Position numbers and translations under genes: made by a program. Positions 6,474-11,600 of a DNA stretch of 58,552 bases are shown here, in pieces (position 1 is the first letter of the stretch; every line of letters starts with the position of its first letter). The notes below the pieces were generated by a model. It searched no databases, was not told where the DNA came from, and saw only the letters and a list, made by a program, of their open reading frames with translations. The stretch is taken from sequence record DRR378314_1251; one strand, 5' to 3'.

Positions 6474-8060
6474 CTAGGCGCGGCGAGCCTGATCAACGGG
6501 GACATGTGTTGCCCCCTTGGCGTCGCGGACCTTGCTGATTTCGTCAGCAACTTTCTTCTCGATGGAAGACAAGCCCTTCTGGACTTGCTGGATGTGCTGT
6601 TCAAGCCATTCCCTGGTCTGGTTCAGGGCCTTGATGTTGTTGTCGATCGCCGCAATCGCCTTGTTGGCCTGCTCGCGTTCCTTTGAATAATCGAAGGGCG
6701 GCAGTTGCGGTGTGACGATTTCGCTAAAGTATTCCGGGCAAGGTGCCTGATCGCCCAGCCGGTCCCGATTGGCATTGCGTGCGCGGCGGTGAGCCTGACG
6801 GTATGCCACTTTCAGGCTGCGCTCCTGATCGGCTGCGCGGGCCGCGATGGCGGATGCATAATCACGGCGCGTTTCCAGCAAATTCATCGCTTTCTCGATC
6901 TCGCGTTTCGCCGCAACGTGACGCGATTGCTGAGTCTCGAACCAGACGCGACAATTCGAGAAATAGTCAGACAGGTCATCGCGAACTCCATTGCGGACCT
7001 CCTGACGACGCTCATAGGCGCGGCGTTCCTTCCGCCAGACGCGGCCATACCCCGGATAGCGATCGGAGATACGGTCATAGCCCTCATAGATGGCCAGGCC
7101 GAACACGGCGAGCCCCATGAAAAGCAGGCCAAGGGCCAGGAAGCTCTCCAGCGCGAAGATGTTGGGGAACATTGACGAGATGACTTCGCCCGGCGCGATA
7201 GAGAACATCGAGAATGACCCCAGCGTCCCCGCTTCGGTGGCAGCGAGCAAGCCAAGCTCCACGGCGTCCCGGAAATGGGCGACGAAGAAGTTCAGGAAAA
7301 TGCCAGCGAGAATGAAGATCATCGCAATGGCACCGCCCATGATCTTCGCTGGCAGCGCCGGGTGATTGAGATAACGCAAGCCGAAAAAGCCCGCGATCAC
7401 GCCGAACACGACGTTCACAGCAGACACACCGAACGCAATCATCAGGCCGCCCATCAGGCCATTTGCCTGAGCGTCCTTGAACAACAGCGCGTTGAAACCG
7501 CCTTCAAGGATCATGATGAAAATCAGGATCGCGACGGCCTGCTCGACATTCTTCTTGATGTCTGGCGTCCGGTCGCCGATTCTATCACCGTGGCGCAGCT
7601 TGAACTGCTGGAGTTCGATGATCGCGGCCGAATGAGTTTCCTTCGCCTCGTTCACATCATCCAGTTCGTAATGGCGATATTCGTTTTCTTCCGTCTTGAT
7701 CGCCTCACGCAATTGGTCGGGATAGATGTCGATGGGCGTGTAGTCAGCAATATAGTTGCGGACCGAAGCCGCAGTCGTTGTCAGCCATGTGCCAAGGCCC
7801 CGGCGAACGTCTTCTGCGCGTTCAGCAATCTGCTGTTCGCATTCGCTCCACTCATCAGGGGTCGCAGCCTCAGACATGGGCAGGCCATCACGCCCGTCCT
7901 TCTTTGCGGTCACCTTGGTGATCTGGCGACTCAACCCGAGATATCCCTGGGCGCGCTTGCCCTTCAGACCATGATCAGAAAGGTCGTTGCGAATCTCCAG
8001 CGGCTTCACCTTTGTCTGGCATCCAACGTCTGCGCCCCAGCGCACAGCTTTCTTTGACAT
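6474..8060 (-). CDS. Hypothetical membrane protein with about 4 TM helices flanked by long coiled coils
   Basis: Long ORF with central hydrophobic block and charged helical termini; ATG 8060 with AGAGGA RBS. Confidence 0.7.
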   Translation of the reverse strand: MSKKAVRWGADVGCQTKVKPLEIRNDLSDHGLKGKRAQGYLGLSRQITKVTAKKDGRDGLPMSEAATPDEWSECEQQIAERAEDVRRGLGTWLTTTAASVRNYIADYTPIDIYPDQLREAIKTEENEYRHYELDDVNEAKETHSAAIIELQQFKLRHGDRIGDRTPDIKKNVEQAVAILIFIMILEGGFNALLFKDAQANGLMGGLMIAFGVSAVNVVFGVIAGFFGLRYLNHPALPAKIMGGAIAMIFILAGIFLNFFVAHFRDAVELGLLAATEAGTLGSFSMFSIAPGEVISSMFPNIFALESFLALGLLFMGLAVFGLAIYEGYDRISDRYPGYGRVWRKERRAYERRQEVRNGVRDDLSDYFSNCRVWFETQQSRHVAAKREIEKAMNLLETRRDYASAIAARAADQERSLKVAYRQAHRRARNANRDRLGDQAPCPEYFSEIVTPQLPPFDYSKEREQANKAIAAIDNNIKALNQTREWLEQHIQQVQKGLSSIEKKVADEISKVRDAKGATHVPVDQARRA

Positions 8061-8206
8061 GCTACATCCTCTTAACAACACACCGCGTTTCATTAACTTT
8101 CGCGAAGATGGGCTGCCTTGGTTACTGAAGCGTGAAAACCGGCGCGGTTAATGCGTATCGTAATGTAATTGGCACAGCTTCATGCTTGCGGCGTTCATTT
8201 CGAAAA

Positions 8207-8221
8207 TGTAACAGCGTAACC
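8207..8221 (+). promoter_or_regulatory. Putative Zur box (TGTAAC-AGC-GTAACC)
   Basis: Imperfect 6-3-6 match to Zur-type TGTTAT-N3-ATAACA operator, directly before a His-rich ORF and ZnuD-like receptor. Confidence 0.5.
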
Positions 8222-8524
8222 ATGAGCTTTCATCGCCATCGGACCCTCTATCTGGCCCTTCTGGCAGCGCTGTTCGTTTTCGTGCAGGCGCACGCACTTG
8301 GCCATGCGGCGGAGCATGGAGATGAACCGCATGACCATTACGGCGCGGCATGCGAACTCAGTGTGATTGCCACAGATCAGATCCTGTTGCCCGCGGCGCC
8401 AAGCGAGCCATTCGTTTTGCCGCCTGCGCCCGGCGCAACTGAGCCCTGTATTTCTGTCGCCAACTGGACCCGTCCGCCGGGGCGCGCGCCGCCTCCGCGA
8501 AGTCCTCCACCCCTTCAGCAATAG
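8222..8524 (+). CDS. His-rich DUF2946/CruR-like leader protein with C-terminal RAPP/RSPP arrest-like motifs
   Basis: Hydrophobic N-terminus, HAAEHGDEPHDH cluster, CELS, Pro-rich linker, ends GRAPPPRSPPPLQQ; directly upstream of a TBDR. Confidence 0.75.
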   Translation: MSFHRHRTLYLALLAALFVFVQAHALGHAAEHGDEPHDHYGAACELSVIATDQILLPAAPSEPFVLPPAPGATEPCISVANWTRPPGRAPPPRSPPPLQQ

Positions 8525-8571
8525 AAACCATTTGTTCCCGCCTTCGGGCGGCACGTCTATTGTCTGAAGGA
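8512..8571 (+). promoter_or_regulatory. mRNA hairpin sequestering the TBDR ribosome-binding site
   Basis: CCTTCAGCAATAGA (8512-8525) pairs with TCTATTG-t-CTGAAGG (8556-8570), covering SD GAAGGA; inner CCGCC-TTCG-GGCGG hairpin at 8538-8551. Confidence 0.7.
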
Positions 8572-8581
8572 CCCCCCAATC

Positions 8582-10786
8582 ATGAAATTCCCCGTCTCTC
8601 GTCGCGTCATCGCGACGTCGCTCCTGTTGAGCGCAAGTCCCTTTGCCTTCGCACAGGAAGAAGCGCCTGAAACCCTCGATACCATTATCGTCACTGGCGT
8701 TGGCCCACAGCGCACATCAGATGAAATGGTCGGCAATGTCACCGCCATCGACCGCGGTGAACTGGTTCAAAAACTCTCCGGCACGCTCGGTGATACGCTG
8801 TCCACGGAAGCGGGTGTCTCGACCACCTTCTTCGGTCAGGGGGCCAGCCGCCCGGTCCTGAGGGGGCTTGGCGCGGAACGCGTTCTCGTTCTCGCAAATG
8901 GGATCGGCACCATTGATGCCTCCGCCGCGTCGCCGGACCACCAGGTCGCCACCGACGGCATCGACGCCGAAAAGATCGAGATCGTTCGCGGACCAGCTGC
9001 TCTGGCCTATGGCGGTCAGGCGATCGGCGGTGTGGTCAATGTGATCGATGGCCTGATCGTTGAAAGCCTGCCCGATGAACCGGTCTCCTTTGACGGCTTT
9101 GCCGCCACCAACAGTGTAAATGAAGGCTCGGAGCTGGGCGGCAAGGCGCGCTTCGCGACCGGCCCATTCGTTCTGACACTGTCAGCATCCGCACGCGATT
9201 TTGGCGATTATGACATTCCGGGCTTTGCAGAGTCATCTCTGCTGAGAGCAATGGAAGAAGACGAGCACGATGATCATGATGATGAAGATGATCATGACGA
9301 TGAAGATCAGGACGACGAGGACCATGATCACGACGAGCACGAGGATGAAGAAATTCGTGACACGATGGAGAATTCCTTCCTCCAGTCCGAAACCTATTCA
9401 GCCGGCTTCTCTTGGGTTGGTGATGACGCGTTCCTGGGCTTTGCCATCCGCCAGCAGACGTCCAGCTACGGGTTGCCAGGCCACGAGCATCATCATGAGG
9501 AAGAAGAGCACGATGATCATGATGACGAGGATGATCACGACGATGAAGATCATGACGACGAAGATCACGAGCACGAGGAAGAGTCCCCGTTCATTGATCT
9601 GGAGCAGACCCGTTATGACATTCGCGGTGGCGCCAAGCTGAATGCCGGCCCGCTCACGCACATTGCCGGTAACCTGTCCTATGCGGACTATGAGCATATC
9701 GAGTTCGAAGGCGCAGGTGAGCCGGGCACCGTGTTTACCACTGAGGGAACTGAGGGCCGCCTTGAGCTTGGTCATGCATTCGGCGAATTTGTCGGCGCGG
9801 CTGGCGTTCAATTTCTGGACAAGGATTTCAGCGCAGACGGCGACGAAGCCTTCCTGACCCCAACATCGACCAAGACCTTTGGGGCCTTCCTGTTTGAAAC
9901 CCTGCAATTTGCAGATCATTCCGTACTGGAAGGTGGTCTCCGCTTCGACAATACCGAGCTCGACAATGACATTCAGGGCGAACGCAGCTTCGACCTGTTC
10001 AGCGCATCAGCGGGCGCGCACAAGCATCTGGAGTCCGGCTGGTGGATCGGCGGCCTGGTCAGCTATACCGAGCGCGCGCCAAACGAAAGCGAGCTGTTCG
10101 CAGATGGTCCGCACCTCGCGACCAGTCAGTATGAGGTTGGCAACGCCTCACTGAGCAAGGAGAAAGGCACAAATATCGAAGCCTCGCTCCGCTGGGAGAA
10201 TGACCGTTTCAGCATCAGCGGGAACATCTTCCATGCTGACTTTGACGGCTTTATCTACCTGACACCCGGCGTGGTGCTGGAGGATGGCGTTGAAGTGGAT
10301 GAACTGGATGAACTTCCGGTCTTCCTGTTCCAGCAACAGGGCGCGAGCTTCACAGGCGCAGAGATCGAAGCCGAAGCCCGCTTCCCCGAGGGATTGCTGG
10401 GCGCAAACTGGGTCACCTCTGCCAGCCTCGACCTGGTCGATGGCGAACTGGATGACGGGAGCAATGTGCCTTACCTGCCGCCGATGACATTCCACGCGGC
10501 GCTTGATGGCGATTGGGGCCTCTGGTCCGCCGGGGTCAACGTCACCGCCGCTGCCGATCAGGATGATCCGGGCACCGGAATTCTGCCAACAGACGGATAT
10601 ATCATGACCGGCCTGCGCGGTGCTGTGAATCTGTCAGAGCTTGGCTTTGGCAAGGAAGGCACGCAATTCTTCGTGGAAGGCCGGAATCTGACGGATGAGG
10701 AAGTCCGCTATTCCACATCGCTCCTGAAGGATTCGGTGCCGGCACCGGGCCGCAATATTCGCGTCGGTATCCGCGTCGCGTTCTAA
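8582..10786 (+). CDS. TonB-dependent receptor, ZnuD-like zinc/metal uptake
   Basis: Signal peptide, TonB box DTIIVTG, plug motifs SRPVLRG and IEIVRGPAALAYG, His/Asp-rich loops, C-terminal Phe. Confidence 0.9.
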   Translation: MKFPVSRRVIATSLLLSASPFAFAQEEAPETLDTIIVTGVGPQRTSDEMVGNVTAIDRGELVQKLSGTLGDTLSTEAGVSTTFFGQGASRPVLRGLGAERVLVLANGIGTIDASAASPDHQVATDGIDAEKIEIVRGPAALAYGGQAIGGVVNVIDGLIVESLPDEPVSFDGFAATNSVNEGSELGGKARFATGPFVLTLSASARDFGDYDIPGFAESSLLRAMEEDEHDDHDDEDDHDDEDQDDEDHDHDEHEDEEIRDTMENSFLQSETYSAGFSWVGDDAFLGFAIRQQTSSYGLPGHEHHHEEEEHDDHDDEDDHDDEDHDDEDHEHEEESPFIDLEQTRYDIRGGAKLNAGPLTHIAGNLSYADYEHIEFEGAGEPGTVFTTEGTEGRLELGHAFGEFVGAAGVQFLDKDFSADGDEAFLTPTSTKTFGAFLFETLQFADHSVLEGGLRFDNTELDNDIQGERSFDLFSASAGAHKHLESGWWIGGLVSYTERAPNESELFADGPHLATSQYEVGNASLSKEKGTNIEASLRWENDRFSISGNIFHADFDGFIYLTPGVVLEDGVEVDELDELPVFLFQQQGASFTGAEIEAEARFPEGLLGANWVTSASLDLVDGELDDGSNVPYLPPMTFHAALDGDWGLWSAGVNVTAAADQDDPGTGILPTDGYIMTGLRGAVNLSELGFGKEGTQFFVEGRNLTDEEVRYSTSLLKDSVPAPGRNIRVGIRVAF
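9254..9583 (+). repeat. Two intragenic His/Asp/Glu tandem repeat tracts (HDDED-like units), about 9254-9352 and 9482-9583
   Basis: Both tracts begin GAGCACGATGATCATGATGA and contain repeated GATCATGACGA-like units. Confidence 0.85.
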
Positions 10787-10823: not shown

Positions 10824-11600
10824 TCAGGCTGCTGGCTGGCCCAGATAGGCCGAGAGAATGGCCTGATCGACGACTGTTCGAACATGCACAGGTTCGAAAG
10901 GCTTGGGGATCAGGTAGGAGGGTTCCTCGTCCTGTCCCTGCAACAGCATTTCCGGATAGGCGGTGATGAAGATTACCGGGACCGGGTTTTCCATCGCGCC
11001 GAGGATGTCTCTCACAGCATCAATTCCAATGGATCCGTCAGCCAGGCGAATGTCTGACAGGATCAACCCGAACTCTGTCTCAGCGGCGAGGTCGACGGCT
11101 TCCTTGTGGGTGGTTGCAATCCCCACAACTGAGTGGCCCGCTTCGGTCACGATCTGGGACAATTGATAGGAAATCAGGGATTCGTCTTCGATGATGAGAA
11201 CGGACGTGCTGACTTCGTTGGCGATCGTGGTTTCCGCCTGTCTCAGCATTTCCTCGACATCGGTATCGTTCACGGTGAGTATCCGGGCCGCTTCCTGAAC
11301 GGAAAATCCCTCGACGACAGTCAGCAGCAATGCGCGGCGCTGAATGGTCGTCATCGTGCTCAGGATCTTGCCGATGCCACTATCTGCGGACAGCTTGCTG
11401 ACGCGCTTGCTGATGGACTTGTCGAGTTCGGCAAACAGGTCGGCCTTGTTGAACTTCAGATCCGGGGCAACGGAGATTCGGAATATGAGCGACTCGATCA
11501 TGTCTTCAACGGCTTCGTCGCCGTTCGTCTGCTCCCCCATCAAACCGCGCGCATAGCGCCGCAGATAGGGTAGTTCTGAAGAAATCAAGTCAGAGAGCAT
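10824..11600 (-). CDS. phyR: PhyR-like response regulator (sigma-like domain plus receiver)
   Basis: LPYLRRYARGL sigma-like N-terminus; receiver motifs IIEDE, DIRLADGS, FITAYPE, KPF. Confidence 0.85.
   Translation of the reverse strand: MLSDLISSELPYLRRYARGLMGEQTNGDEAVEDMIESLIFRISVAPDLKFNKADLFAELDKSISKRVSKLSADSGIGKILSTMTTIQRRALLLTVVEGFSVQEAARILTVNDTDVEEMLRQAETTIANEVSTSVLIIEDESLISYQLSQIVTEAGHSVVGIATTHKEAVDLAAETEFGLILSDIRLADGSIGIDAVRDILGAMENPVPVIFITAYPEMLLQGQDEEPSYLIPKPFEPVHVRTVVDQAILSAYLGQPAA

Follow-up and report, generated by a model that had tools for sequence, protein, structure and literature searches.

To our knowledge, the metal-sensing arrest peptides demonstrated so far, CruR and CutF, are confined to copper. 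Upstream open reading frames (uORFs) that bear RAPP or RGPP and precede the genes of TonB-dependent receptors have been recognised as an over-represented class (Fujiwara et al., EMBO J 2025, PMC12992588). According to the same article, the two Pro codons in RAPP sit in the P and A sites of the ribosome in the CruR arrest, and RSPP is arrest-permissive in ApdA/ApdP (PMC12992588). The 45-residue spacing between CXXC and RAPP in CruR is described as conserved and functionally important (PMC9426467). In CutF, stalling is reported to melt a stem-loop masking the Shine-Dalgarno sequence (SD) (PMC9973294; bioRxiv 10.1101/2025.02.05.636593), and CutF-like proteins have been sorted into 29 clusters with Cys, His or mixed motifs, which are considered 'not all Cu-specific' (PMC9973294). 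Here, we analyzed a 58,552-nucleotide stretch of DNA (sequence record DRR378314_1251; hereafter the window), in which a uORF for 100 amino acid residues, the leader, precedes the gene of a ZnuD-like TonB-dependent receptor on the same strand, separated from it by 57 nt of intergenic DNA.

A first-pass annotation of this DNA took the leader for a His-rich RAPP peptide that controls the receptor in response to a metal, zinc in particular. The 100-residue ORF was found with all of the features listed for it, but it starts at position 8222, whereas position 8207, the left border of the annotated element, lies in the upstream non-coding DNA. A GTG triplet at 8132 is in frame with the leader; coding is not conserved there in the relatives. 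The hydrophobic N-terminus, the His cluster HALGHAAEHGDEPHDH (residues 24-39), CELS (residues 44-47), RAPP and RSPP are all located where they had been placed (Table 1). RSPP is followed by four residues and the stop codon, RAPP begins five residues ahead of RSPP, and 45 residues intervene between residue 47 and R93. The AlphaFold2 model of the leader, computed with the alignment of its family, comprises a helix of residues 2-32 and little other structure (mean pLDDT 85.6, pTM 0.43). In terms of RNA, contigs of metatranscriptome X14 cover 8087-8528 and 8538-9400 at low depth with a break at 8529-8537, and a contig of metatranscriptome X18 covers 8231-8405, both of which attest presence in RNA libraries only.

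The leader belongs to a large protein family. With a profile built from 14 sequences, a library of 1.84 billion proteins yielded 495 representative clusters at E<=0.001, of which 123 remained at E<=1e-10. Nearly all of the members are about 100 residues long. Homologues occur in 15 of the 61 related genomes, in 10 of the 80 genomes sampled within the genus, in 19 of the 401 genomes drawn evenly within the class and in 15 of 401 within the phylum. In public records, the members go by 'hypothetical protein' alone and lack any precomputed Pfam domain. As the family is absent from Pfam and its members are annotated as hypothetical, it is invisible in genome annotation. The hallmarks of the family are a hydrophobic N-terminus, H-x8-H-x-H-x4-C, a spacer that is conserved in length but variable in sequence, and a C-terminal RxPP located 1-7 residues before the stop codon.

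H28, H37, H39, C44, R93, P95 and P96 are invariant in the 14-sequence alignment. Among the best 150 of the 495 clusters, on which all of the following statistics of the family are based, C44 is invariant and the other six residues are conserved in at least 90%. HxHx4C was found in 141 sequences, and the full form, H-x3-[YFHW]-G-x3-H-x-H-x4-C, in 104. By contrast with these positions, residues 45-88 have no majority residue in the consensus except for one Pro (residue 57). The last RxPP is RGPP in 74 sequences, RAPP in 43 and RSPP in 29, and is absent from the remaining four; in 145 of the 146 sequences that bear it, the motif stands 1-7 residues ahead of the stop codon. From the third residue after the Cys (C+3), the last RxPP is 44-49 residues away, most often 46 (45 in 34, 46 in 77 and 47 in 18 of the 137 sequences scored). 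Two RxPP motifs at the fixed offset of five residues were detected in 89 of the 150 sequences, 65 of which contain RAPPPR[GSA]PP. The motifs are thus conserved in the relatives, as the first-pass annotation required, and the tandem is present in the window; as judged from the alignments, however, it is RSPP, not RAPP, that represents the putative family-wide arrest position, and RAPP is the upstream half of the tandem. One claim of the first-pass annotation was lost here. The reduction of CxxC to CxxS is no family feature, as the residue at C+3 varies (S 38, A 19, G 17, D 14, T 14, C 2, plus others). We therefore regard H28, H37, H39 and C44 as the conserved sensor-like set, i.e., the putative ligands, to which Ser47 does not belong.

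The leader falls short of Pfam DUF2946, the family that includes CruR. The hidden Markov model of Pfam DUF2946 (PF11162), which had been suggested as a check, matched the leader of the window with 12.8 bits (E 0.2) against a threshold of 23.7, and 14 of the 150 family members matched it at E<=0.01 (best, 1.7e-4). The profile-profile comparison to a DUF2946-like leader of the same genus aligned nine C-terminal columns with a probability of 2.7%. CxxC stands at the corresponding position in more distant hits from other classes of the phylum, and the family thus grades into the canonical CruR-type leaders. Separately from the above, the first 63 residues of a protein from a 645-base public metagenome contig (P0007) are identical to those of the window leader and are followed by an unrelated sequence with the RxPP tail lost; this short contig is probably frameshifted or chimeric.

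The 3' end of the leader is predicted to pair with the SD of the receptor gene. The fold of 8470-8600 joined 8512-8525 to 8556-8570 by 14 bp with a single bulge at 8563, enclosed an inner hairpin and covered GAAGG, reproducing the stem and the C(UUCG)G hairpin of the first-pass annotation. Its minimum free energy is -42.1 kcal/mol (z = -3.05), a value equalled by 1 of 200 shuffles. The 5' arm of the helix falls inside the +3 to +15 zone of a ribosome with Pro95 (8504-8506) in the P site. By the same footprint geometry, a ribosome held at RAPP reaches approximately 8504 at most and leaves the stem intact, so that the 5' arm can be reached from RSPP only. In a thermodynamic model of the window, the six SD bases were on average unpaired with a probability of 0.17 in free mRNA (0.00 for GAAGG), 0.17 with a ribosome at RAPP, 0.32 with a ribosome at RSPP and 0.24 with a terminating ribosome. 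Melting of the 5' arm by a ribosome stalled at RSPP, as had been proposed, is consistent with the reach of the footprint, whereas the modelled freeing of the SD is partial. The opening stays partial in the model because CCUUC at 8541-8545, a second anti-SD within the inner hairpin, can re-capture the SD. CCUUC is present in the window strain and its nearest relative, and absent from the other species of the genus.

We extended the examination of SD pairing to 34 loci, in which the intergenic regions are 54-142 nt long (the start codons chosen for this count give longer values in three of the loci than another choice did). The SD is predicted to be paired to 0.76 on average. With the third residue of the last RxPP placed in the P site, 73% of the partner mass of the SD lies in the ribosomal footprint from -12 to +15 and 65% in the 13-nt stretch that extends from the A site to +15, with only 10% in the remaining intergenic region. 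When the 13-nt piece was swapped for that of another locus, the pairing of the SD with the piece dropped from 0.525 to 0.21, and the native piece paired better than the swapped one in 28 of the 34 loci (lower in 4, tied in 2). Comparison of 9 loci of the genus agreed with this result: the duplex of the two arms has a mean energy of -15.4 kcal/mol in native pairs and of -11.6 kcal/mol in cross-species pairs. Compensatory changes were found in the outer helix, namely CAG/CUG to CAA/UUG in three species and CUUCAG/CUGAAG to AAUCAU/AUGAUU in another species of the genus. A GC-rich hairpin occupies the position of the inner hairpin in all loci of the genus with changed stem sequences. Thus, the covariation asked for by the first-pass annotation is seen in compensatory changes and in stronger native duplexes, but hardly in a column-wise count on a MAFFT alignment (see below). 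RNAalifold with 7 sequences recovered the outer helix only in part. The inner hairpin is not followed by a U-tract, and a terminator scan called none between the leader and the receptor gene. No known RNA family was found by Rfam in 7900-8800 at E<=1.

The receptor itself was best matched among NCBIfam models by ZnuD (NF038289; 363.8 bits), and missed the curated cut-off of 950. At E<=1e-10, ZnuD 4RDR is the only relative with a solved structure (E 1.8e-50). We regard the receptor as ZnuD-like, not as an equivalog of ZnuD, on the basis of these scores. ZnuD was listed at the top for all of the 12 receptors scanned downstream of the leader family (that of the window, 6 and 5), with the partial sequences scoring 200-290 bits. 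Altogether, the architecture, the 45-residue spacing and the top match to ZnuD bear out the first-pass view of a CruR/CutF-like RxPP leader heading a ZnuD-like receptor gene. The second type of protein encoded downstream of the leader is of approximately 450 residues and of outer-membrane type, with a signal peptide, an N-terminal coiled coil and no Pfam family (loci L029, L031-L037, L039, L040, L042, L044, L075, L080 and L081). It is possibly a porin-like trimeric outer-membrane channel; in a language-model atlas, which we take as a lead only, it lies near clusters named porin O/P or TonB-related.

The leader of the window is preceded by a Zur-like box, in line with the Zur repression assumed by the first-pass annotation. 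This box, GTAA-N5-TAAC (GTAACAGCGTAAC), has the same core form as the Zur sites reported in Caulobacter (PMC4176598). GT[TA]A-N5-T[AT]AC within 45 nt upstream of the leader start was detected in 12 of the 34 loci and in 4 of 13 further loci, against a background of 0.018 per 150 nt over all collected loci with the leader-upstream sites included. Two of the carriers, L037 and L040, are porin-linked loci with perfect Zur-like palindromes. In the nearest genome, 11 sites match the 15-nt palindromic TGTWAYNNNRTWACA with at most one mismatch; the site of the window is one of them, and another is located 72 nt ahead of a ZIP zinc transporter gene. The elements upstream of the leader are arranged as TTGCGG-17 nt-TAACAG-7 nt-ATG, a promoter scan found no consensus sigma-70 site, and no SD precedes the leader ATG (8186-8224). 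TTGCGG and TAACAG are spaced like -35 and -10 elements, and an SD is lacking; translation of the leader may therefore take place on a leaderless or near-leaderless mRNA.

Altogether, we propose, with a probability of roughly 0.6, that the leader is an arrest peptide of the CruR/CutF type, the stall of which would expose the SD of the receptor gene, and that the three His and one Cys would bind metal as they emerge and thereby end the arrest. Transcription would probably start at or just before the ATG of the leader, from a promoter overlapped by the Zur-like operator. The translating ribosome would pause at the Arg-x-Pro-Pro motifs near the C-terminus. At the second of these, RSPP, where Pro95 would be in the P site, the mRNA channel would cover the first bases of the 5' arm; as the covered bases are the partners of the SD, the latter would be exposed as long as the stall lasts. 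In this stalled state, the H28/H37/H39/C44 motif would be 51-67 residues away from the peptidyl-transferase centre, which would put it right beyond the end of the exit tunnel or within the Sec channel. A metal ion on the motif, most likely zinc, may then pull or fold the chain and end the arrest, whereupon the helix would re-form and synthesis of the receptor would fall at plentiful metal. The sequence features with their conservation and spacing, the occurrence next to ZnuD-like receptor genes and the conserved pairing of the leader 3' end with the SD are observations, while we infer the arrest, the ligand, the compartment of sensing and the sign of the response; the logic, in which the stall means ON and the metal releases it, is modelled on CruR, the copper case.

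Several observations weigh against the above proposal. The modelled unmasking of the SD in the window is modest (0.17 to 0.32), and the family-wide mean of the unpaired probability, calculated for a coarse SD window, rises only from 0.40 to 0.52. In the model, ribosomes that reach the stop codon of the leader also open the helix, and plain translational coupling may thus explain a part of the design. The native tail paired no better than the swapped one in 6 of the 34 loci (L011, L012, L013 and L037; ties in L004 and L042). Column-wise covariation in the MAFFT alignment of 11 sequences of the genus is weak, with 64.9% of the cells paired against 63.0% after shuffling, and 10 of 500 shuffles reached the score. 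We ascribe this weakness to shifts in register, migration of the bulge and the inner hairpin being out of register, for which reason the duplex energies of individual sequences and the swap controls were used instead. The loci examined are mutually related, so that our counts overstate their independence. RSPP is described as just 'partially permissive' in ApdA/ApdP (PMC12992588). As for the metal, the scores to ZnuD, 200-364 bits, are far under the cut-off of 950, relatives with CxxC also precede ZnuD-like receptors, and the characterised relatives sense copper; for these three reasons, zinc is only the probable ligand.

We nevertheless lean towards zinc as the sensed metal. In its favour are the targets, which resemble ZnuD, the Zur-like boxes, the absence of the second Cys, and a separate leader of copper type that occurs in the same genus. 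His and Cys bind Cu, Ni and Co besides Zn, and the leader could instead sense copper, or nickel or cobalt, in which case the receptor, though ZnuD-like, would transport some other metal or a metallophore. Both of the characterised relatives, CruR and CutF, are reported to respond to copper, and His-only CutF-like clusters adjoin the HupE/UreJ genes that are linked to Ni and Co (PMC9973294). The low score of the receptor and the CxxC-type relatives in other classes, mentioned above, point in the same direction. On the other hand, the boxes stand at the start of the leader, a ZIP gene follows one of the remaining 10 such sites of the nearest genome, C+3 is Cys in 2 of the 141 sequences scored (the second Cys of CxxC being lost in the other 139), the receptor contains two long stretches rich in His, Asp and Glu, and a Cys-type leader of its own precedes an OprC-like receptor gene in the same genus. 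We therefore consider a metal other than zinc rather unlikely.

Two other types of leader were found in the same genus. The leaders of loci L051-L053 are approximately 140 residues long, contain two Cys, end with RLPARGPPLSA and stand 65-69 nt ahead of a receptor gene, the product of which is best matched by the NCBIfam model TonB-copper (OprC type). The intergenic regions of these loci again contain an arm adjacent to the stop codon and an inner hairpin. The leaders of L047-L050 and L054-L057 contain HxCGSCHxH, end with GLYRPPRA right at the stop codon and precede, by 73-74 nt, the genes of IhpA/TolC-like outer-membrane factors of divalent-metal exporters; they resemble the CzcI/CusD-type CutF-like proteins described in PMC9973294. 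With the Cys type before an OprC-like receptor and the HxCGSCHxH type before efflux factors, the type of the leader tracks the metal system.

The leader may also act on transcription rather than translation, as in CruR. A stalled ribosome would mask a C-rich rut region or block Rho, its release would lead to Rho-dependent termination before or inside the receptor gene, and the SD helix would be secondary. CruR, the closest characterised case for an uptake receptor, is reported to work via Rho (PMC9426467). Moreover, approximately 8380-8720 of the plus strand is C-rich and G-poor (GC skew, -0.13 to -0.33), and the 5' region of the receptor gene, when untranslated, would be open to Rho polarity anyway. 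Nonetheless, the intergenic region is 57 nt in the window and 54-142 nt in the family as opposed to 162 nt in CruR, and the conserved, co-varying pairing between the leader tail and the SD would be superfluous for a switch based purely on Rho. Thus, we regard control through Rho as unlikely. Neither this nor a metal other than zinc is exclusive of the core model of an arrest leader. Finally, it is improbable that the leader senses no metal and serves for Sec monitoring or constitutive coupling, as ApdA/ApdP and SecM do, or as a small periplasmic protein with a role of its own (e.g., a zinc chaperone or a ligand of the receptor). Such readings have in their favour that export monitoring is the role in which RAPP arrest peptides were discovered (PMC7897499), that the N-terminus of the leader resembles an export signal and that every ribosome that finishes the leader opens the helix. 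However, the downstream genes are for metal receptors and not for Sec components. Moreover, the three His and the Cys keep a constant distance from the putative arrest site although the sequence in between varies freely, a pattern more in keeping with a nascent chain that senses while tethered than with a folded protein or a device for export monitoring alone.

Returning to the SD-exposing arrest leader, we tentatively consider a more elaborate version, a two-step zinc switch, which is possible albeit doubtful. Zur would read cytoplasmic zinc at the leaderless promoter, while the three His and one Cys of a chain tethered at the tandem RAPP-P-RxPP would read periplasmic or translocon-proximal zinc. 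By the footprint geometry, the first stop of the tandem would leave the helix closed, and the second stop alone would open it and expose the SD. If true, arrest peptides would for the first time be extended to a metal besides copper, and the switch would define a family made up of several hundred sequence clusters, by which ZnuD-like receptors and porin-like outer-membrane proteins would be controlled. The locus and its family would carry metal-sensing arrest over from copper to uptake by a receptor of zinc type, and would do so with another ligand motif, composed of three His and one Cys; the locus could reveal a tuning of outer-membrane zinc import beyond Zur.

Table 1. Coordinates of the leader, the receptor gene and the associated DNA and RNA elements in the window.
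Feature	Position	Strand	Remarks
Possible -35 element TTGCGG	8186..8191	+	Inside a GCTTGC block conserved in the genus
Zur-box-like GTAA-N5-TAAC	8208..8220	.	Ends 2 nt before the leader ATG
Leader ORF (uORF)	8222..8524	+	100 aa; ATG at 8222, TAG at 8522-8524
Hydrophobic N-terminal segment, residues 9-26	8246..8299	+	Putative signal peptide or N-in signal anchor, from reading of the sequence
Putative metal-binding motif H28-x8-H37-x-H39-x4-C44	8303..8353	+	Family form H-x3-[YFHW]-G-x3-H-x-H-x4-C
Spacer, residues 48-87	8363..8482	+	Length conserved, sequence variable
First RxPP (RAPP), residues 88-91	8483..8494	+	Upstream half of the tandem
Second RxPP (RSPP), residues 93-96	8498..8509	+	Putative arrest position, conserved family-wide
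5' arm of the long-range helix (anti-SD)	8512..8525	+	Last codons, stop codon and one further base
Inner GC hairpin, UUCG loop	8538..8551	+	5 bp, 8538-8542 with 8547-8551
3' arm of the long-range helix, including SD bases	8556..8570	+	From the RNA fold
Receptor Shine-Dalgarno sequence GAAGGA	8566..8571	+	10 nt ahead of the receptor ATG at 8582
ZnuD-like TonB-dependent receptor, 734 aa	8582..10786	+	Pfam Plug and barrel domains

No further gene follows the receptor gene on the plus strand, and a PhyR-like gene (10824-11600) converges on it. The divergent neighbour of the leader at 6474-8093 on the minus strand encodes a protein of 539 residues that has membrane segments and a long coiled-coil region and belongs to no Pfam family. 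In all loci of the genus seen, its start (MSKKAVRWGADVGCQ...) lies in synteny beside the leader. Within the receptor gene, the GAT/GAC-rich repeat at 9269-9306, which encodes an Asp/His/Glu-rich stretch, is matched by unrelated contigs of metatranscriptome X15 with a word depth in the thousands. This depth is an artefact of low complexity and not expression of the receptor gene.

RAPP uORFs before TonB-dependent receptors have already been published; judging from their sequences, the leaders with three His and one Cys constitute a distinct, unannotated branch of the CruR/CutF leaders, apparently devoted to genes for uptake of zinc type at the outer membrane. The portions covered of the text of PMC12992588 contain neither 'tandem' nor 'zinc' and do not describe the His/Cys family, and the words zinc and ZnuD are absent from the CruR paper (PMC9426467). 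Among the texts covered, none joins arrest peptides, zinc and TonB-dependent receptors, and the supplements of PMC9973294, PMC9426467 and PMC12992588 may list members of the family.

CruR of Bordetella pertussis (Bp2923, the DUF2946 uORF before BfrG) is, as described, likewise a small exported ORF that heads the operon of a TonB-dependent receptor. CruR and the window leader share a C-terminal RxPP a few residues from the stop codon, a metal motif and an arrest motif set 45 residues apart and, by analogy, the logic expected of uptake, in which the stall is ON and the metal releases it. They differ in the metal motif, CXXC in CruR and H-x8-H-x-H-x4-C (with CELS) in the window leader, and in the arrest motifs, which are in tandem in the latter. 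Downstream, CruR is reported to have 162 nt with Rho-dependent termination, whereas the 57 nt of the window contain a predicted SD-sequestering helix. Given its ZnuD-like receptor and the presence of a Zur-like box, the window probably involves zinc, unlike CruR.

CutF of Rhodobacter capsulatus (cutFOG) is described as starting with an N-terminus of Sec type, bearing a Pro-rich stall site towards its C-terminus and being followed by a short intergenic region, all of which have counterparts in the window, and as having a stem-loop that shields the downstream SD until a stalled ribosome opens it, for which the counterpart in the window is a prediction. On the other hand, CutF bears CxxxC, which was not found in the window leader, and senses periplasmic copper, and the metal turns a detoxifying oxidase ON. 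Since the target in the window is an importer, the opposite sign of response is expected. Placement of the anti-SD within the last codons of the leader itself is a further feature unlike CutF. ApdA and ApdP are likewise small exported proteins that bear an RxPP close to the C-terminus and are encoded ahead of the gene to be regulated, but are reported to monitor the export machinery. In SecM-secA, a stalled ribosome similarly disrupts a helix that hides the downstream SD, but the motif of SecM is RAGP, and SecM senses Sec activity and no metal. Among the receptors, ZnuD of Neisseria meningitidis (4RDR) is the TonB-dependent receptor to which that of the window is related by structure searches, and the Zur-regulated ZnuK/L/M of Caulobacter have an upstream box similar to that of the window (PMC4176598); unlike the receptor of the window, neither ZnuD nor ZnuK/L/M has a leader ORF in the descriptions covered. 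Altogether, the locus in the window would combine the fixed 45-residue ruler of CruR, the SD unmasking of CutF and SecM, and a fixed tandem of arrest motifs.

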